From Vicugna vicugna (taxonomy: Eukaryota): 64,000 nucleotides of DNA. Numbering within the stretch: the first letter of the stretch is position 1; every line of letters starts with the position of its first letter. The stretch is from contig MU058213.1 of NCBI GenBank assembly GCA_013265495.1, forward strand, positions 3,224,001-3,288,000. The letters run 5' to 3'. This document shows positions 29,387-50,000 of the stretch, one piece after another. The notes under the pieces were generated by a model, which worked only from the letters and a program-made list of their open reading frames with translations, did not search any database and was not told where the DNA came from. The translations under genes and the position numbers were made by a program.

Positions 29387-30587
29387 CTTTTGGCCAACTA
29401 ATCTTTGACAAAGGAGGCAAGAATATACAATGGAATAAAGACAGTCTCTTCAGCAAATGGTGTTGGGAAAACTGAACAGCAGCATGCAAAACAATGCAAT
29501 GNNNNNNNNNNNNNNNNNNNNNNNNNNNNNNNNNNNNNNNNNNNNNNNNNNNNNNNNNNNNNNNNNNNNNNNNNNNNNNNNNNNNNNNNNNNNNNNNNNN
29601 NNNNNNNNNNNNNNNNNNNNNNNNNNNNNNNNNNNNNNNNNNNNNNNNNNNNNNNNNNNNNNNNNNNNNNNNNNNNNNNNNNNNNNNNNNNNNNNNNNNN
29701 NNNNNNNNNNNNNNNNNNNNNNNNNNNNNNNNNNNNNNNNNNNNNNNNNNNNNNNNNNNNNNNNNNNNNNNNNNNNNNNNNNNNNNNNNNNNNNNNNNNN
29801 NNNNNNNNNNNNNNNNNNNNNNNNNNNNNNNNNNNNNNNNNNNNNNNNNNNNNNNNNNNNNNNNNNNNNNNNNNNNNNNNNNNNNNNNNNNNNNNNNNNN
29901 NNNNNNNNNNNNNNNNNNNNNNNNNNNNNNNNNNNNNNNNNNNNNNNNNNNNNNNNNNNNNNNNNNNNNNNNNNNNNNNNNNNNNNNNNNNNNNNNNNNN
30001 NNNNNNNNNNNNNNNNNNNNNNNNNNNNNNNNNNNNNNNNNNNNNNNNNNNNNNNNNNNNNNNNNNNNNNNNNNNNNNNNNNNNNNNNNNNNNNNNNNNN
30101 NNNNNNNNNNNNNNNNNNNNNNNNNNNNNNNNNNNNNNNNNNNNNNNNNNNNNNNNNNNNNNNNNNNNNNNNNNNNNNNNNNNNNNNNNNNNNNNNNNNN
30201 NNNNNNNNNNNNNNNNNNNNNNNNNNNNNNNNNNNNNNNNNNNNNNNNNNNNNNNNNNNNNNNNNNNNNNNNNNNNNNNNNNNNNNNNNNNNNNNNNNNN
30301 NNNNNNNNNNNNNNNNNNNNNNNNNNNNNNNNNNNNNNNNNNNNNNNNNNNNNNNNNNNNNNNNNNNNNNNNNNNNNNNNNNNNNNNNNNNNNNNNNNNN
30401 NNNNNNNNNNNNNNNNNNNNNNNNNNNNNNNNNNNNNNNNNNNNNNNNNNNNNNNNNNNNNNNNNNNNNNNNNNNNNNNNNNNNNNNNNNNNNNNNNNNN
30501 NGACTGAAAAATTGTGCTGAACACTGGAATTTGACACAACATTGTAAAATGATTATAAATCAATAAAAAATGTTAAAAAAAAAAAAA
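29387..30587 (+). mobile_element. Young-looking 5'-truncated L1 spanning an assembly gap
   Basis: L1 ORF2 sequence left of the gap (CAACTAATCTTTGACAAAGG...CAAATGGTGTTGGGAAAACTG); L1 3' end with AATAAA and polyA right of it. Confidence 0.8.
29502..30501. other. Assembly gap (1000 N)
   Basis: Run of n; the round length suggests a nominal size. Confidence 0.99.
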
Positions 30588-37150: not shown

Positions 37151-40100
37151 GGTACCACGTTCTTTGTTAGCTCAAGCTTGTTAATTTTTGACAGATGCAA
37201 CTGGTTGCTTATCCAAAAAACATTCGCCCCTTGCTGTTAGAACTATTGGTATTTTTTTTTTTTGCACATTAGATGGAAATATTTTCAGAAAAGATGAGTC
37301 TAGCCCCAAAGGATGAATCATGTTTGGTCTAAACTAATCAAAGGAAAATCAGCTGAGGGCTTCTGAAAGATCTTCCTCCTAATAAAAAGAGAACAACCTG
37401 AGCCTCTTTTCCTGCTTGCTTTTGGATGTTGTTCTGTGAGAAAACGATATATGGAGCAGTAGTAGCCATTTTGCAACTATGAGAGGAATGCCAAGAGAAT
37501 CACAAAGATGTCTTTTGTAAACCTTACCATTCAAGTAAGTTTGTTCTTAACATTGTTACAGTGGTGCCTCTACTTCAGGGATCGTGGAGCTGCTGAGTTT
37601 GTAGAACTCCTCTCCAATTAATTTTCTATTAACAAGGCTGAAGTCCTAGTTTGTAAAAATCAAAGTAGAGACATGTTCACATTTTCTTAAGGAAACTCAG
37701 GACTCAGCATTATGCATAAACTTCACAGGAAAAAAAAAGTTGTATATAGCAAGACCTGCCCAAAAATACCAGTTTGCTCCTCAGTATAAAATTAAATTCC
37801 TGATAAACTGTAGGCTATTGCCCTGCTTAATGTTTGCTGGGACATCTACCCAAAGCCAAAATTATGACACTTACTTGTCTTGATGAAAGTCAAGCATTTA
37901 AAAAACAGTTATTTTTCTCTTTAAAAACTAGCTTTATTTAAAAGAATCTGAAGCATAACACTGATAGGAAACAAACTTACAATACATATTGTTTAAGAAA
38001 GCCTGCCATACATAATTTCTACTAGTAGTAGGTCTATAGACTGATAAATAACATTCTTTATACAATGCACAAATGACAGCATGATCCCTGAAAAGAATAG
38101 CCAACAATAACATGGACTGTTTTGATAGAACCTCTACTTGTCTCACTACTTATCTAGAGTAAAAAACTAAAATGTGGGAGATAAGTTAAACTCCCCAATT
38201 TTAAATTCTAGTATGGTGTTTAAGAAAGAAGGAAAAAGGACACGAAGGAAAAAATTATAAGAGTTAAATATTTTAAAAAGAACAATGAGAACTGGCTTAC
38301 TACTACTTATTATAATTATTAAAAAGTAATTCAGAATTGAGAATTTTTTGGTTTAACATTTGGAAGCTCTTAGACAGTCAAACTATAATATATCTACTAT
38401 ATTCAATCAGTCACCAAGCCAATTTTATTTCTCCAAAAACAGTAACCTGCACATTGACCACATAAGAAAATGAACAATTGGGGGAAACCTAGTTATTTCC
38501 TACTTTATTCAAATTTTTTCACAAAGCAACTCATGAATCATTTAAACCTTCATGATCCAAATAGAAACAGACCCAGTTCTAAAACACTGTATCTGAAAAT
38601 ACCAGAAAAAAAATCCCTAACACGTAAAACTAAATTTTTAATACAAAGAAGCCCATGAAAACATTTGGCATTCAAGTAAAATACAATGGGATTATGACAC
38701 AGTATGGTATCTGGCATTTTTAAAAATATTGAGAACGGAATCAGATTTATTGCTATTTCAGTTCTACCAATAGCTGACAATCAAATGTACAAAATACACC
38801 ACAACAACCATGCCAAAAATGATGCTGTATGGAGAGACATTAGCATAACAGCAGTAGACATTTATCTTGTAATATACATCACTGATACCGTAAAACCTGG
38901 TTAATTCAGGAGAGTCTAACTTGGTAAAAGTCTAAAAATTTGAATATTTTAAAAAGATATGCAGTTTAAGCACTCTCACAAGCATTCTTTTTTTTTCCTG
39001 TTAGCCATGTAATTTCAAATATACAAATTTGAAGTATTATCTATTACAATTCTTTTGGGTACTTGGTTTAATGACAAAAGAATGCTTTTAAACTAGCATT
39101 TTGAAATAAATGCCCCTAAAAAGCTGAAAATTTTTTCAAGGTTAAACATTTTTTTCTTTAAAATCTTGATTATGACTTTTATTAACAAATGTTTTCATCA
39201 GATAGTACAAAGTAACCACCATTCAAGTCCATGTATCAATGGTTACAAATTCTAAGTAAATTAGAGGAGTTTTACGGTATTTTAGTAGTTTCTTTATAAA
39301 TAAAGATTAACATTACTACTTATTTTGGTTCTGGTGGAGTGAATATCTTTTTGGGTTGGAAGATATCAGAATAAGTTCAAGGTCTAGCAGATAATTTTAA
39401 TGGTATTGGCTAAAAAATCCTTATCTGCACTGTCAATTAAGAGAATAATTCCTTAGTAAATGATAACTGTAAGAGAAACATCACATTTTTAACAAGTATT
39501 TATTGTATTATGAGTGATATGAATTGCTAACACCAAATTTTACCCCTCTCTCCCAATTCAAAGACATCAGGCCTTCTAGTAATCCATAAATATTGATGTC
39601 TCACATACTTCATAGAGTAGCTTAAACATACCAGCATAAGAAATTATTAGTATTACATAGTAATTTCCTTTGCCATAGGAATAAATGTTGGACAAAGTCT
39701 GGAAACATTTTATGTTCCAATTTGAATTACAGTAATTTTGCCACAGACCACAGCACTAGTGCATGTGTTAACTTCAGACATGCTCTAAGAACAAAACAAA
39801 AATTTACTGCAAAAATACATGTCACCAATGTGGAACACACTCAGATTTGTATAAAAGTACTGAACTAATATCCCAAAAAGAGGTATATGTAAGCAGTACA
39901 TAAGGAAGAAATAGTTTTAATATGAAACAGTCATTTAAGTCACATACATCATGATAAGAAGCAGGACTTTCTTTTATAAAAGATATTTTAACTAACAAGC
40001 AACATCATCTACAGAACAAGGAAAGTACAGATATTTAGAAGATTTTAATATAATTACAAGCAATGCATTTTGACAAAATATGACAAAGATGAAGCTTATG

Positions 40101-42812
40101 CATTGGGTTTCATGAAAAGTTTTCTTCCCTTCATTTGCCCTACACATCTTGTCTTGGGAGATACTGCCATCCCTAGCCTCTTTACTCCAGGGGTGCTTCT
40201 AAACTTCCATCACTGAGCTGGAAAAATACAGATGTGACTTCTATACCGCTTTATCAGCTACATGAAACAGAGGAAAAGGGGAAGTTACTAAAATTTGGAA
40301 ACCTCTGAGTTCAGAAGTAGAGGAAAAGCAACTGTGAAAAGTCTCAACAATCTAAAGGAAACTGGGAAGTAGTCTCAAGAACGTATCAGTCAATTTGATC
40401 AGTAAATACTGCTTCCCATGGTGCCTGAAAAGTGGTCACACTGTCTGAAATCTTAGGTACTAAAGATTCATTCTAAATAAAGTCTTTTAAAAAAAGAAAC
40501 TTAATCCCGCTTTCTTCACTGTCTTTGTTCAAATCTTGCTGGAAAACACTTTTCCCTTGAAATCTAGCCAACCACAGCCAACAGAAATGGGAATTCTGAT
40601 TAGAAGAACTATGAAATTTTGAAGTACAGAGCATCCAGGAAGCAAAAAGGCAAGTTGGTTTTATGTAGCATTCCATTGGGGAAGTTTGGGATGGTAAGAG
40701 GGTAAGTGGGAAACACTCACACCAAAGAACTTAACCTTCCTCAATTAAATCAGAAAAAAGGGAAAGACCTCTGCTTCTTTCTCCTTCCTACACTGTTTCC
40801 TTAAAGAAAACTGAGCACTCAGCATGATACTATTGGCTAACTACATGATGGTTGAAATAAGGCTTTATGAGCTTCCTTAAGAATCCAATCATCTTGTACA
40901 GAGTTCTAAACCATTATTTACAAATGAACTTTGGAAATCTGGATGCTTTTAATTAAATTTTTAATTAAAAAAATCTTAAATAGCACAAATGTTCATGCCT
41001 ATGAAACTTCTATACACTGCAAAAAAGAAATTCAAAAACTCTCAAGCTCCCTTTAAAAGTCATTGCTTATATATATTATACAATTACTATAGTACGTTGG
41101 ACAGTAAGTACTAGCACTCAGTTTGTTCAAGACAAACAAATATGAAAGAATGTTAGAAGACTCCTGATACTTGTTTTACCTGGATTATTATAGTCAGCAG
41201 ATTTCATGGTGACCTGCTAACGTTTTTTTTTTTCCTACCACTAGGCAGAGTTAGGAGTCTTAAAAACACACACACACACATAAATCGGATTTCTTTATAT
41301 TGTGTTCATCTATGAAGAGTAACCACTAGTACAAGAAAATCTTCAGTTTTACGTACATAACCTTCTAATTTGGATAACAAGGATCATAATCGCAGTACTC
41401 TAAAATATTTCACACAAAAGGAAAACACGGATCACAAGTCTAATTCTAAGCACTCTATCTGAAGAACAATTTATTTTTCTTTTACAAGCTAATCTGTTTT
41501 AGTATTAGTGAGTCCAGTAGCATCTTGAAGCAAGTGGACCAGGAATTCTCTAGTGAAATGAACAAAGCAAGTTCTGAGAAAGGAACTGACGCTTTAAAAT
41601 TTTCTATCAGTAACCCAGCCTTGATGGGAGAGCCTAGCTATTGATAGTTAGCCATGTTGAACTTTGGCAAAACTTAAGAATGCAGGAGAAACCCCAAGAT
41701 TTCCTGCTTAGTTCTTTGTTGATATGTGTGCATGTGAGAGTAGGCCTTTCAGTGAAGGAAAAGGATTACACTCCCCAAAAAGGTGTAATGCTGCTGGAAG
41801 ATTATTCCACCTGTGTGTATTTCTTTCCCTCACTGAATATTTTTAAATGTTTAGGGCAGCTTGTCATTTGTCTTAAGAAAGCCATACCAATTTGTATAAT
41901 AGCCTTCTCTGAGTCAAATTAGGCAAATATCTGGCCATTCTTATAGCTCATCATTTTCCCTACCCAAAAGCATCCAGATAACTTTTGACTAAGTGTCATG
42001 TAGAGACAAATATAGAACTAGTAAGAAAATTAATTCAAATACATGAAAACATTCATCAGCTATGACTGTAGTCTGCCTATTGTCAGAATCAACCATGGGT
42101 TTTTCTTTTGAATATTTACAGCTTCTTACTTAAGTAAAGTGCTCTGAAGACCTAAATACATGAATTAAAAAATCACTTGTTTCTAGGTTTTTAAAAGCAA
42201 CGACTTGGAAATGGAAAATGAACAAATCATATTATAAGCCAAGTATTTTTAGACTAACTTGGGAGAGGTTATTTCATTCTCACAACCAACTATTAAAACT
42301 GTAAGCAGTAGAGGGCTTAAGAAACTGCACACTCATCTTTAGCAGTGAGCACAACTCAAGTCCTACCACGTGAAGTGTTAACTCCTGAGGACATTGGAAG
42401 GTTCTACTCAGTCTCTAACCAACTGTATTCGGTCATAAAACATCAAGATCTGATGCTAGGACTGGGCATATAGCAGTCAGTGCACCATTTCTAACAAATC
42501 AGCACTCACAAGATTTCAAAAACAACATAACTAGGTCCTTAAGCATTTAGACAATTATGTTAATGAAAGCTACAATGTTAAGCAAAATGTGACCTTCGAG
42601 TATGCTGCTGAACACATCAAATGTCAAGAGTCATCCAAAACTACTGCATTTTAACCTGCTTCAGCTGGTAAAGTTTTCACACAAAGGAGTACCTAGTATT
42701 AGAATTTGTATCATTTCATTTCCTAAAACCATAAAGACACATAGCTTATAACTGTATTTAAAATATTTTGTACTCATCTCTAACTAGTCACAGGCAAATG
42801 GAGAAAACCTTA

Positions 42813-44038
42813 TATTATCTTGTACCATACGAAATTGCTGTTTTGTAGGTCAAAATTAAAACAATGCATTTTAAAAAGTAAGTTTTATTCAATCAAAATA
42901 CACATAATGAGCATTAATACTTTTCTTCTAATAGGATATTAAATATTTCATTCTAAGAAAATTCATCGTTAGGCTCTGTAAATTGTTCAAACTCTCTAAT
43001 TCCTATTTCTCAGCTGGAGAATATATTGTTTCTTAGAAAAATCTCCAAATGATGAAAAAGATGGCAATTCACTAGACAAAGTTCTGGTGACTACGATAGA
43101 CACAAACTTTAATAGCTCAATTCAATGAACTTTGCTTTAGTGGCTTGTGACATGTGAAGTCAAGTGCTGTCATGTCAAAGTGTTGGGTTCATGTTTATTA
43201 ACCAAAGGACATTTAATCAGACTTTTCCTGCATAACTTAAATTTCTTGGCAATATTGCTGCCACTGTCATTTCACCAAGGTTTAAATGGTAGTAATTATC
43301 CCTTCTGCAGATCACCATATGGTCTTCAGAACTTTTTCGGTCACAATGATAATGATGATTCAAGTTTGGGAGCTTCATCAATATCCAATCATTTACGTAA
43401 ATTATTATCAACTGTTATAGAGTATCTTTTTTTTGGTCACAGATTATGATCCACTCCAAAAATGGGTTTCTGCTATTTTGACTCTTAATTCAAGCACCTC
43501 CAACTGTCTCCATTCTTGATCATCTCTCAAGAGGATACTCTCAAGTCCATATTTTACACTTTCCCAGTCACAGCAGAAACTCTTTGTCGATTGGAAGGCC
43601 TCGAATTGTTGTGAGTTAGTGCTCACCTTAGCTCTTCATTGATTTTTGCTTAAAATGGATTTTGAATTCCCCTGAGGCTCATTTTTGAATTCAGATCCCC
43701 AGAACAAGATTTTTTTCAAACCACCACTGAGTGGTTCTTTTGCCAGCAGAGCTCTCTAAGACCAAAGTGATGTTTCTACCTATCTTATTTGCATATGTCC
43801 CAGTTTGAAATGATATTAAGAAAAGTATTCACAATTCTTCTGAGGATACTGTATTATTTATTTCTCTGGAAAACAGTAACAAAACAACTCCATAATCAAA
43901 GAAAATTGAAAACTGAAGAGCAAAATACTTTTATATTTCTAAATAGCACAACTAAAAACATACTTTATGACAACTCTACTAATTGTAGTCAATTTCAACT
44001 GATCTAACATTAGCAATTTCATGTGGTACAGTCCACAA
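42813..44038 (-). mobile_element. Fossil near full-length mariner (Tc1/mariner) DNA transposon
   Basis: Inverted repeats 42821-42840 and 44011-44030 (17/20 identical, MADE2/MARNA-like); ~1.2 kb; decayed transposase inside. Confidence 0.85.
42889..43850 (-). pseudogene. Degenerate mariner transposase
   Basis: Hand translation gives colinear motifs HFKLGH, RTTQWWFEK, NPFLEWIIICD, KILYN, LDIDEAPK, TIW*SAEGII, HDST*LH, *SPELCLVNCHLFHHL and terminal YFD*, with many stops and frameshifts. Confidence 0.85.
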
Positions 44039-44332
44039 GTTAATCAACAAATACTTATTGAATATCTATTATATGTTAACATCTGTCTCATATCTGTACA
44101 GATATCCTGGAAAGACTGACTTGAAAATATGAAAGTCACTAACTTCAAGGACCCTAGTACGGGAGGAATTTGGTGCCATACTCTATTATTTTTTAAAACA
44201 TCCATTAAAATGTATGCTTTCTTCCATGTTTCAGCTACCTATATTCTTTCTGAAAACATGTTAAATGGATCCTTAAATATTTTTTTGAAATAAATGTTTA
44301 ACTTGATATTGCCAAAGTTCAGCACTGAAACA

Positions 44333-44549
44333 CAGTTGACCGTTGAACAACACAGCTGTTAGGGGTGCCAACCCCTCAATGGTCAAAATCTGCCCACAGT
44401 TTTACAGTCAGCCCACCGAATCCATGATTCCCCATCCTCAGATTTAACTAACCATGGATCACATAGTACTATAGTACATGTTTACTGAAAATAATTCACA
44501 GATCAGTGGACCCATGTAGTTCAAACCTGTGTTGTTCAAGGGTCAACTG
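44333..44549. mobile_element. MER8/Tigger2-type MITE
   Basis: 23-bp terminal inverted repeats CAGTTGACC(G/C)TTGAACAACACAG, 22/23 identical; 217 bp. Confidence 0.85.
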
Positions 44550-44889
44550 TTAAACTTTTCAAAGATTCTAACTTTTAGAAGTCAAAACTTGCCTACATTT
44601 GCTATATATTATTTTGAAGCTTCAAGAGGCTTTTTTGTTTATTATTAACAACTAACATTTATTTGTATAATATTTTCTAGTGCACCCTCATATACATTAT
44701 TCTTATTTAAGATAGCAAACAAGGACAACACAGTTTGCACTAGCAATGAAGTGGGATATTAATAAAAACAAAAAGATAAATAATCTTTTTGTGTGTGCAT
44801 TGGAAAAAAATGTGAAACACTAAAATCCTGTGTCACTGAATCTCCGTAACACACAGGGGGAAAAAAACCACTGTAGTTAATGCCCGTGA

Positions 44890-46014
44890 TTAAGCATCAC
44901 TGCCCACTGCAGGTGGACCAAAAGTCTCTCTAGTGCGCATTAACTGAACATCTTTGTCAGCCATACAGGTATCACAGCCCCATACCGCTGATGCTTCTGC
45001 TGTTAGGAGGCCATAAGCTGTTTCAGTCATTCCAGTGCAGATCCGATGAAACCACTTCTGACAAGAGGCTTCACACAGGATAGCATCCTGATCATCATTC
45101 ACTTCATTTGTACAAATTCCACAAGGATACACTGGGTCAGAGGAAGAATGGCCATGACGGCTTGGGTGGAGAGAGGATTTATTGCTTTTCTCAGTGGTGC
45201 ATGTATCTGCAGCACCTCTAGGTTGTCGTGGCTTATTCTGTGTCCCATTTGCATGGCTGTTGTTTGTAGCTTCAGTGCTACTTGAGCGGCTGTTCTCTTG
45301 GTTTACTGCATTGTTTCGATTAACATTTTTTAATTCAATATTACTCTGATTCACTGTGTCATCCATATTTAAGTGAGGTGGATGAGCAGAGGAATTTTGA
45401 TTAGTGTTTTTGGTTGCTCCTTGACTAAAGTCTTGTTTTGGGGGTGGTGCTTTTGCTTGACCAAAAGTGTTTGGGGGAGGAATAAAAGAATGATTAGATT
45501 CTAATGGAGAACTAAAATTTGAATTATTTCCAGGGACAAAGTTAGACGCCAAGTCAGGGTTAGATACTTGGCTTGCATTCTGTGGAGGAATCTGATTGAA
45601 GTTTTCAGCAGGATTTTGTCTAAAATGTTGATTAGGCATGTTAACATTCTGACCTAGTGCATTATTATAAGATGGATTTCCAAAACTTGAATTATCGTGT
45701 GGCCCAAAGTTAAAAGCATGAGGTCGATTAAAACCCATGCCCAAAGGATTCTGAGGAAATGGGTGTGGCTGATTCCTGAGTGAGTAAGGACCACAGTATG
45801 GGGAAGACATTCTTGGAGGAACGTGTGGTGGCATTCTGAATGTGCTATAGCCTCCAAAGCCAGGGTACCCAGGGCCAAGATACGGATTTGAAGAAGGTAG
45901 TGGTTTATAGGAAATAGTATTATAATTGTCATCAAATGGATTAGCAGCTACTAGATGGTCAGAGTTTGGATTCGGTGGCGGAGCATACTCAGACAACGGA
46001 GGAAAAGAAGGCCC
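44890..46014 (-). CDS. PYGO1: PYGO1 last coding exon: NPF motif and C-terminal PHD finger
   Basis: tttcag|GGG CCT; GPSFPPLSEYAPPPNPNSDHLVAANPFDD...CGIC...CEASCQKWFHRIC...CDTC...GSDA*; TAA at 44890-44892. Confidence 0.98.
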   Translation of the reverse strand, partial: GPSFPPLSEYAPPPNPNSDHLVAANPFDDNYNTISYKPLPSSNPYLGPGYPGFGGYSTFRMPPHVPPRMSSPYCGPYSLRNQPHPFPQNPLGMGFNRPHAFNFGPHDNSSFGNPSYNNALGQNVNMPNQHFRQNPAENFNQIPPQNASQVSNPDLASNFVPGNNSNFSSPLESNHSFIPPPNTFGQAKAPPPKQDFSQGATKNTNQNSSAHPPHLNMDDTVNQSNIELKNVNRNNAVNQENSRSSSTEATNNSHANGTQNKPRQPRGAADTCTTEKSNKSSLHPSRHGHSSSDPVYPCGICTNEVNDDQDAILCEASCQKWFHRICTGMTETAYGLLTAEASAVWGCDTCMADKDVQLMRTRETFGPPAVGSDA

Positions 46015-46996
46015 CTGAAATGAGAATGTAAAGTAAAATACATGTTTTTGATCAAATAAGCCATTAAAATGGTCCTGTTAACACTTAGGAGCCTAGCTTT
46101 AGTTAAATTTCTCTTGAAGTGTTACAAAAATTTAATTCATTTAGAAATAAGGTATGCTCTTTTGAGTTCAAATCGATTGTTACAAACTCTAAAAATATTC
46201 AACCCTCAAAAGAAGCTTCATTATAATAATTTTTCATTTAATAAGCTTACCTATAACTCCAGAATCATTCACTTAAAATTTTAACTAAAAATACCTTTTA
46301 CACCTTCAAACAGCCATAAAATTAAATAACAATAAACAGAATCTAATTCTTTTTCCCTAGCTTAACTTTGGGAGTAGCTATTAGGGTATTCCCAAAATAC
46401 TAAGCTCTAGGCCTCAGAATGGAAAAATAAACGGCCAGTTTTAGTCACACTGCAAGTTTAACACATGAAACTTAAAGTAAAGAAAGTAATCTGTACACAC
46501 TTCATACCTATTTTCAGTCTTTATAATAAAAAGAGTACTTCAGATTTATACAGGATAAAACCAAGAAAGTCTGTATTTGTAACTGTTTATTACAACCACA
46601 GGTTACAGACAAAAGATGCCTCCACCATGACTATTTCATGATACGTACATCCTACTGATTTATTGCAATAGCTGAACATCACTCCAGGTTAAATTTGTAT
46701 CCATATATTTTTAAATCTTTTAGCAAAACTACAGGCATCAATTCCTTTTAAATTAGATTTAAGAATAAGCATTTTAATTCATCTGCCTATACTTTCTTCT
46801 CACAATATTCACCCTAGGCCTACGTCAAATAATAGCCACTAGTTGCAGAGTTAAAAACAAAAAACAATCACTGCAGAATTCACTACTAGGTTCTGAATGA
46901 GGACAGGAAACAAAACCCATGACCTAAGTTAAATTCACCTAACAGCCTAAGCATATCAGTGAAGAAAAACTGTTATTAAAGAAAATACCAATTTAC

Positions 46997-47082
46997 CTGT
47001 GTGTTTGTCTTGCGTTTTTTCTTATCTGGGCTTCCTAGTTGTACACCTGGTCCTCCTAACCCATCCAGTCCACTATCACCAC
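46997..47082 (-). CDS. PYGO1: PYGO1 exon 2 (contains the KKKRK NLS)
   Basis: tttag|GT GGT...CAG|gtaaat; 86 nt; (G)GDSGLDGLGGPGVQLGSPDKKKRKTNTQ. Confidence 0.96.
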
Positions 47083-50000
47083 CTAAAAATAAATAAATAA
47101 ATCCAGATAATATTTCTACTTGTAAGGGAAATTTTGTAGCTCTCATAGCAATATCTATTATAGCTACCCATTCATATGCTTTCTATTTTTTTTTTTACTA
47201 GGTAAAAGCAATACTAAGCTTTTATTATCTTTGTTCTTCAAAAAAATCTTCCCCATAATCTCAGCCAGAAACAGTAATTCACCTCTACTCCCATAGCATT
47301 TTTTTATTATTCTTCCAGTGATTAAGCCTCCATCCCACTCCCAAACCTTCAGTCATCCGGTTCTCCGTCCCTGAGGCAACCACTGTTGGTAGCTTCTGGT
47401 CTATCTGTCCAAAGATAATCTAGATAAATCCCAGTATAATATCTTTTCGGAGTACACAAACGATGGCACGCATACCCTGCACAATGGCCTGTACCTTGCT
47501 TTCCTACTTGGAAATCACTCCATTTCATTGTGTATAGTACGAATTAGTAGTTATCTCATAGTATGACTGTGCCATGATTCATTAAAGTAGTCCCTTCCCT
47601 ACTGATGGATATTTTGGTGGTTTATAAACCTTTGCTATTCTGCAATGAAAATCTACATATAAATGTCCTTACATTCATGTACAAGTCATTCCTAGAACTG
47701 GAATTATGGCATCATAGCTATGTGCCTTTTACTTCTTCAAGAGATATTGTCAAAATACAACAATGTATGTGAGTATGATCTTCTCAATAGTGTAGGATCA
47801 GGCAAAAGCAAAAGCTTGACTGTGAATCTAAGAAGTTTTAAAAATTTTATCAGTGGAATTTTTTCCATTTAAAAAACAAAATTTTTATTACAGAGAATTC
47901 TGAACAATAAAGAGAAATCAGCATGCTGGCCATAGTCCCATACATAACAAAATGCAAAGTAGATTTCTGTAAGAGCTATTTAGGAGAAGTTTAAATATTA
48001 TGGAGGTGAAAAACTATGACAAACAATAACAAAATTTTAGTGAGGATTCTGGAAGTTAAATTAATATTTAAACATCAAAAGCTTTCATATATACCAACTA
48101 CAACCAGTTAAAAGATAAAGTGGAACAAAAGCTTTCACTTACAGGAACAAAACTAAACTATAATAGGTAGCAATAAATTTAAGAAATGCACAAGATCAGT
48201 ATGAATAAAAACTTTTTAGAAGCCTTACTTAAAGACGAAGAGGAAGACTTCTAACAGGGGGAAAGGTATTCCCTGTTCTGGCTAGCCATCGAGAACAAAA
48301 TAACATTGTTTTTATTTACCCTGCTGATTATCCCAGACAGCCCTGTTGTACCCTCCTCAGAGACATCAGCACTGGGCGTCTGAGTCTCAGGCCCACAGGG
48401 TCCATCCTCTAACTCCATAGACATTCAGATAACCTAAGCAGCACCCCCTTCTTAGAGACCTGAGTGTAAATGCTAAAGGATCCCTCCTGTGAATTTATAT
48501 ATTTCAATAATTCCTCTTTTCAGTGTCCCACAGCCTCAATAATGGTAGCTGTTTCCCCCAGTTTATACCTCTGTAAAAACTTTAGTATATTATTTTGCCG
48601 GTTTAATATCTGTTAACAGTACTTTATATTGAATTCTGTTAAAAATAACTGGTATGGTTTCTGTGTCCTGACTAGACCCTGACTGATAGATATCTCAAAC
48701 CCACCAGCCAGAAACTATCATTACTACTACGTTAGCATCATTCCAGTCTTCCAGCTTACCTGTCTACTTTTCCTTCTGCATATAAAGAGTGATACTAAAA
48801 TCAATAAAAAATGTTAAAAGAAAGAAAAAAAGAAAAAAAAGAGTGATACTAATACCTTTATAAAAATGGGATTCTATTTTTAAAATAAAAGCAATAAATT
48901 TTAACTTTATTAGAATTTAATGAAGGAAAATGGACTAAGTTAAATGGAAGACTATACTAAATCTTTCTTTACCAAAAGAGAAATTTTTGAAAGAATTCTC
49001 TAAGACTAAGAAAAAACATCAAGAAAAATACGAAGTCGGAGAAGGTATGGTTTTTCTTTCTTCAATCCTATGTAGACTGACTTCCTGTTTTGAAAGTTGA
49101 GGATAGTATGGTATCACATCTCATTCTACTTTTTTCCTCCCTAAATTTAGCAGGGTATTTTCTAATCTCTAGATTCAATTCTTTGTTTCAGGTAAACTTT
49201 CTTTTTTCATATCTTTGAATACTTTTTATGTTCTATTTGTTGAGTGCTGTTTCAGGGATATTATCATTATGCTAGGGAAATTTTTAGCTCCATATCCATT
49301 AGTTAATCCTCTGACCACTCTGTCTTTTTCATCTGCACTTGATCTGTTTATTTAAAGCTTTTCTATTATGTAACTTAATTGTTACCTTTATTCTGCTTCT
49401 TATTTCTAATTTATGCATTTGTTCTACATATATGTTGTTTTAGTCCTCAATTTGTTTCCTTAGGTCTGCAATTTACCCTTCATCTCGTTGTGTGTTATTA
49501 TCATCTTGCCTTTGAGTTCTTGTTTTATTTTATAAAGTACATGTGGGTTATTTCCTTCCGTCTCATAGGTTATGGGTTCTTCATCTTCTGTATGCTGTTT
49601 CTTTTCTTTGTGTTTGTTAGCTCACTAGTTTGCTATAGTGTGTCTGCATAGTTATCATGCTTTTATTTTTATCTTGTAACTTTGCCCAGACATTTTAAGC
49701 TCTGATTTAACATGGATGACTTTGACTCCCTCTTATTCATATCTAAGACTGTTTGTTTGGCATAAGTGATATGCTCCATCTATTGAGATAACCATATGAT
49801 GTTTTTCCTTTACATTGTTTTAATGTTGAACCCAGCCTGATTAACTTGGAATAAACCCAATTTACTAATTTTTATATGAATGCTGTATTTATATGGACAT
49901 GGATATTTTTACATGGATATACAAATATTCTCTTTATAATGCTTGCCTATGTCAGTAAGATTAGCCTGTTGCATTTCCTTGAAACATCCATGCTCTTAAT

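Follow-up and report, generated by a model that had tools for sequence, protein, structure and literature searches.

A decayed, almost full-length mariner transposon, likely in the PYGO1 3' UTR of Vicugna vicugna, and its apparent relatives

The PYGO1 locus and the limits of the element

We analysed a stretch of 64,000 nucleotides of Vicugna vicugna (assembly GCA_013265495.1, contig MU058213.1, positions 3,224,001 to 3,288,000), hereafter the window. Its minus strand carries an open reading frame at 44890-46077 that contains the last coding exon of PYGO1 (44890-46014), and the PHD finger encoded there has PYGO1 chains as its best PDB match, with an E value of 9e-44. A near full-length fossil mariner transposon of 1222 bp, at 42815-44036, lies on the same strand, starting 853 nt behind the PYGO1 stop and ending about 2.1 kb behind it. 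The original prediction had placed the element in sense orientation to PYGO1, and this is supported, the identity of the gene being given by the PHD finger matches in the PDB. At 44332-44550, in the interval from the PYGO1 stop to the fossil, we also observed a younger-looking element of 219 bp with 24-nt inverted repeats at 96%, which we take to be Tigger2/MER8-like. At about 29500-30500 of the window, a run of N of about 1 kb marks an assembly gap in the neighbouring gene, presumably DNAAF4/DYX1C1.

The fossil ends in terminal inverted repeats of the mariner type (about 26-30 bp), the 3' repeat at 42815-42840 and the 5' repeat at 44011-44036, both read on the minus strand; the inner 19-20 nt of the 5' repeat are well kept and its outer 6 nt are decayed. 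The arms 42821-42839 and 44012-44030 are 89% complementary over 19 nt; of 3000 inverted pairs of 90-mers drawn at random, 6 reached their alignment score. A pattern search of the window for the repeat returned the two arms only, a result that is circular as a test of significance. The left end of the fossil matches the perfect inverted repeat of an intact mariner, L030, at 19 of 26 positions without a gap, TA included. Because this end matches the L030 repeat and the two arms pair with each other, the limits of the element were set at 42815 and 44036. On the outside, the target-site dinucleotide TA is present at the 3' end (42813-42814), where it lines up with that of L030, while the second TA is not intact: at its expected position, 44037-44038, stands AA, likely a decayed target site. 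The predicted inverted repeats at 42821-42840 and 44011-44030 were confirmed, with 17 of 20 positions identical. The predicted range of 42813-44038 does hold the element, but it includes the target-site dinucleotides as well.

The mariner L030 (L030:200-1500) is complete with perfect inverted repeats; its contig, of 1547 bp, is part of a Bacteroidetes bin and is likely a eukaryotic contamination there. In metagenome contigs, a pattern of the fossil's 3' end was found at 29 loci, none of which extended the match, and all were treated as chance. A plasmid search with the element gave zero matches, and no tandem repeats were found in 38000-47200.

The decayed transposase gene and its relatives

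Between the repeats, frameshift-aware alignment delimits a decayed transposase gene at 42889-43852 on the minus strand, which lacks an ATG at the start position and has a deletion near the linker. Its stop codon, TGA, occupies 42889-42891, which leaves a trailer of 74 nt up to the 3' end, and the leader between the 5' end and the start position measures 184 nt. The remnant of a two-HTH DNA-binding domain is found at 43568-43864. The first and second catalytic Asp codons, both GAC, are at 43436-43438 and 43169-43171, and the third catalytic site, at 43067-43069, now reads Asn (AAT), with 33 codons between the second Asp and this Asn. The triad reads D, D, N, the Asn being one base off an Asp codon and the spacing one codon short of D34D, as decay would give; D34D is present in P0261, the intact transposase described below. 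These codons, the spacing and the stop agree with the original prediction, and the motifs that it had read across the frameshifts (RTTQWWFEK, NPFLEWIIICD, LDIDEAPK, HD, SPELCLVN and YFD, stops as asterisks) were all recovered where they had been placed.

The frameshift-aware translated check that had been proposed yielded a colinear transposase alignment. All of the 120 full-length relatives aligned, with scores of 126-268. Two templates, for which controls were run, scored 217 and 268; with 200 shuffles for each, the highest scores were 47-48, and 84 other tiles of the window gave 48-53. The best template, P0261, reached 339, compared with a maximum of 47 in 200 shuffles; the alignment runs from the start site to the terminal YFD with 147 of 313 residues identical (47%), and it is colinear over P0261 residues 54-394, in the single-gene layout of two HTH motifs followed by the catalytic domain. 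Of 127 transposase-type queries run in tblastn, 70 matched the element with E<1e-3, and no query matched any other part of the window. Against the PDB, minus frame 1, with stops as X, returned SETMAR chains only (all 3 rows, the best at E 7e-10) and frame 2 gave two weak SETMAR rows (E 0.31); the four weak rows of frame 3 were unrelated proteins and were rejected. A Pfam scan of the six raw frames gave no match in any of them, nor did a word-indexed protein search with frame 1 among 954 candidates.

The damage counted depends on the template: 16 frameshifts and 12 stops with P0261, 10-13 frameshifts and 9-12 stops with the top 20 others, and 9 frameshifts with one other template, that is 9-16 frameshifts and 9-12 stops overall. 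The open transposase frame that an active autonomous mariner needs is absent from the fossil and, because of these frameshifts and stops, no protein can be encoded by the element. Both repeats, together with the colinear decayed transposase, bear out the reading of the locus as an ancient, once-autonomous mariner of almost full length.

The transposase had been likened to the Hsmar1 type. The likeness holds for the motif order, as it does for the two-HTH and DDD architecture, the terminal YFD and the length of about 1.3 kb, but Hsmar1 is a cousin only: the fossil is 35% identical to an Hsmar1-like transposase, and Hsmar1/SETMAR form a separate clade with an SH value of 1.0. The fossil is also far older, and this copy, unlike SETMAR, was not domesticated. 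We take the Hsmar1/SETMAR transposase to belong to the cecropia subfamily. Judged by sequence, the nearest relatives of the fossil appear to be the mariner domain of a C16orf87-mariner fusion, treated in the next section, and P0261. Aligned with the fossil's DNA-binding domain, 14 full fusion domains scored 146-172 (53-61% identity), two shortened camel models 129, P0180 131, the best of 34 others 115 and the domain of an Hsmar1-like synthetic transposase 79, after 3 of the 54 rows had been dropped in which the cut motif was not found. In FastTree trees of the domain (46 rows) and of the full-length proteins (36 rows), which hold Hsmar1-like relatives only and no irritans or mauritiana outgroup, the fossil and the fusion form a clade with SH-like values of 0.96-0.99 with all three read-through templates, the fossil being a long branch (0.6-1.3). 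P0261 (JGI/Logan/ENA) is the best full-length match to the fossil and is 66-73% identical to the fusion domain; two of three trees place it as the sister group, with SH values of 0.998-0.999. Unlike the fossil, it has an open frame and an intact D,D34D. This transposase comes from environmental data. Of the relatives that look active it stands nearest to both the fossil and the fusion, and its host might give a clue to where the old invasion came from.

It is very improbable that the element is a copy of Hsmar1, or of a young lineage-specific mariner such as Oamar1, which belongs to another mariner subfamily. In its favour, the PDB matches of frame 1 are all SETMAR, and there is a precedent in Oamar1, a mariner fossil that PMC1687206 places in the prion-protein gene's 3' UTR in cow, deer and sheep. 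The likeness to Oamar1 is one of description only, and Oamar1, unlike the PYGO1 fossil, is an insertion of the ruminant lineage. The low identity to Hsmar1, the separate clade, the heavy decay and the grouping with a pan-placental gene all speak against a copy of this kind.

The ends of the fossil may resemble those of MADE2 and MARNA. These are short non-autonomous mariner derivatives. A probe of the MARNA-derived miR-340-5p reached a best score of 23 on the element, a score also reached by 401 of 1000 shuffles and in 19 of 49 window tiles. According to passages of PMC2689173, MARNA is classed as DNA/Mariner and is common to primates and laurasiatherians. HSMAR1, HSMAR2, MADE1 and MARNA are given in the Repbase review of human elements (PMC5753468), where MARNA, in the accessible part of the text, is not among the mariners with coding sequence.

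The C16orf87-mariner fusion and the age of the family

A search of 1.84 billion representatives returned 26 matches, among them a zebra protein named 'SETMAR-like', which is the N-terminus of C16orf87 (UPF0547) joined to a mariner HTH domain. A search with P0006, a relative of this protein, gave 46 matches, 17 of which combine UPF0547 and HTH_48 (Pfam), and this combination was confirmed in 6 of 6 rescanned models. In these fusion models (P0016, P0030, P0158-P0177 and P0198-P0268, from a locus outside the window) the host domain is in frame with the transposase domain. The fusion is known from predicted gene models, and these cover each of the four superorders of placental mammals, with elephant for Afrotheria, sloth, anteater and armadillo for Xenarthra, marmot for Euarchontoglires and many members for Laurasiatheria; the named rows overall include bats, carnivores, whales, horses and camels. 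No primate or mouse member is found among the named matches listed (15 of the 44 members in the largest cluster).

The mariner domain of the fusion retains both HTH motifs and the linker, unbroken, is truncated after the linker and is 86-96% identical at the protein level among eight species. The fusion, annotated as 'SETMAR-like' or 'C16orf87 homolog' in many placentals, is like the fossil in the DNA-binding domain and in its junction, but it is intact and conserved, is fused to a host zinc ribbon and lies at a different locus. The label 'SETMAR-like' is probably wrong for this gene.

The junction of the fusion models matches the fossil's splice acceptor, a pyrimidine tract and AG at 43866-43885 on the minus strand, just upstream of the transposase start. 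Similarity between the fossil and the fusion locus in non-coding DNA is weak: two of seven upstream pieces beat their shuffles (8 of 300 and 2 of 300) and five did not. In the accessible part of 10.1101/2020.05.07.082677, Cosby et al. describe how KRABINER and eight further fusions arose by capture at an acceptor that lies within the transposon, shortly before its open reading frame. By analogy, this mode may fit the C16orf87 copy, whose host part is a zinc ribbon and not KRAB; it is not applicable to the PYGO1 copy. Among titles and the starts of abstracts, we found no literature on a C16orf87-mariner fusion, and of the papers listed in a wider search none combined mariner with C16orf87 or UPF0547. 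Neither of these two names occurs in the accessible part of the main text of Cosby et al. or in that of PMC12062965.

Some of the models depart from the common form. In three camel models (P0175, P0176 and P0234) and one of a horseshoe bat (P0177), the junction lies further downstream and the first HTH helix is missing, which a shift of the acceptor or an error in the gene model would explain. The horse model P0030 has two different C16orf87 zinc-ribbon exon copies flanking the mariner exon, and these two UPF0547 stretches point to an exon duplication at the birth of the fusion. A single-sequence AlphaFold model of the fusion protein P0159 was poor, with a mean pLDDT of 49. The idea that the fusion recruits HDAC1/MIER1 was weakened: passages of PMC13133221 report that C16orf87 binds HDAC1 by its C-terminal 24 residues and not by the zinc ribbon. 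HDAC recruitment by the fusion is doubtful because the short fusion models lack this HDAC1-binding C-terminal helix. The models of a preprint (10.1101/2025.08.08.669391), in its accessible part, place the C16orf87 N-terminus against HDAC2.

The fusion is found in all four superorders and the family was therefore active before the placental radiation. This radiation took place about 90-100 million years ago. A neutral simulation with 20-25% nucleotide change gave 54-62% identity and 7-8.5 stops (sd 2.6); the fossil, with its 53-61% identity to the fusion domain and its 9-12 stops, is near these values, neutrality being assessed by coding capacity only.

Seven scraps of ORFs agree with the fossil at 59-94%, in part in frames other than that of the transposase. 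A frameshift near 43486 is shared by all three scraps that span the site; at the shifts near 43335 and 43293, three scraps run through both, and P0011 is without them. This nested pattern fits orthologues decaying along a tree, and the scraps are, on their sequences, probable orthologues or possibly paralogues. They are ORF fragments without flanking DNA, and the query that found them was frame 1 of the fossil itself, so that shared frameshifts were favoured. One further protein in the cluster of a scrap, P0263, is an unrelated tRNA synthetase and was dropped.

The fossil in the PYGO1 transcript and its meaning

It is likely that the element lies inside the PYGO1 3' UTR. The exon and the UTR upstream of the element make up about 48% of 42000-46100. 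Five runs recorded as RNA, from two studies, and nine guessed to be RNA hold 0.50-0.55 of the words of this stretch, and six other runs hold 0.96-0.98. The share in the RNA runs, compared with the 48%, indicates that the covered part probably extends into the element or beyond it, although these runs carry other organism labels and pre-mRNA or DNA could also explain the share. A literature search found nothing on a transposon in the PYGO1 UTR.

Two AATAAA hexamers stand upstream of the element on the mRNA strand, at 44638 and 44658, about 240 nt behind the PYGO1 stop, and use of a poly(A) site there would leave a real fossil outside the mature PYGO1 mRNA. We regard this as unlikely, since the RNA runs, with the reservations just given, hold more of 42000-46100 than the exon and a proximal UTR explain, and the human PYGO1 3' UTR is long, about 7 kb.

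Also to be weighed is whether the copy remained almost whole by being exapted in the PYGO1 mRNA, as an alternative poly(A) site, through RNA pairing of its repeats or as a binding site of the fusion protein. An AATAAA in mRNA sense overlaps the transposase stop (42884-42889) and is followed by CA and a U/GU-rich tract, which makes it a candidate poly(A) signal, but there are 11 such hexamers in 38000-44890, about the chance number (67% AT, hand estimate of about 10). The two inverted repeats pair in the minimum-energy and the centroid folds, computed at this length with no shuffle control, while the 2 and 8 weak rows from Rfam all fell far short of their gathering scores. The below-average substitution rates of MARNA repeats given in passages of PMC2689173 would favour exaptation if the fossil belongs to MARNA's family. 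Against it, the probable orthologues differ in their frameshifts and, the closest one aside, at 28-41% of residues, and the ATTTA density and CpG depletion of the element resemble those of the rest of the region. No signs that the copy was kept for usefulness were found among these features, and exaptation is, in our judgement, quite unlikely.

The sense orientation and the kept acceptor (43866-43867) would also allow one to imagine PYGO1 splicing into the element to give a fusion of PYGO1 with the transposase, of the kind known from SETMAR and KRABINER. The element is behind the last exon, however, and PYGO1 exon 2 spliced to the acceptor would meet a stop after 3 codons, the transposase frame having its own stop after 11. 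An in-frame fusion is absent, so this explanation is refuted at the protein level and is extremely improbable.

We therefore favour, with good confidence, a dead and almost full-length mariner that likely inserted before or around the placental radiation, likely lies in the PYGO1 3' UTR and is likely a neutral passenger, the fossil and the fusion exon being, as we infer, of one old family. The element would have inserted at a TA by cut and paste, before or around the placental radiation, and would then have been carried passively in the long PYGO1 3' UTR under neutral decay. Fossil and fusion exon would be two insertions of this family, of which the fossil decayed. The insertion at C16orf87, to go by its sequence and by the protein identity between species, would have been captured by way of the splice acceptor that the element carries and then retained under selection. 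The fusion protein would most likely bind the inverted repeats of the family, and the fossil may preserve a sequence of this kind that the protein would recognise.

Taken alone, the fossil is ordinary, dead DNA transposons being present in many UTRs. Its value is that of a reference copy, from which the ends of an old mammalian mariner family and nearly all of its coding region can be read; the accessible part of the Repbase human review (PMC5753468) does not list this family with coding sequence. The inverted repeat in the window is a ready probe for binding by the fusion protein.

A bolder proposal, which we consider rather unlikely but worth stating, is that the fossil represents a third mariner family, older than the placentals, of which it would be a rare and near-complete relic, and that here lies the autonomous parent so far missing for MARNA and MADE2. 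The DNA-binding domain of this family would live on in an undescribed C16orf87-mariner fusion of all four superorders and would still bind the family's repeats, including the pair behind PYGO1, as an old regulatory network hidden under the name 'SETMAR-like'.

The part worth following is the link to the conserved fusion gene. The fossil ties the old family to a strongly conserved gene that is labelled 'SETMAR-like' in non-primates and, if the fusion is unreported, this gene would be a new, placental-wide case of transposase capture.
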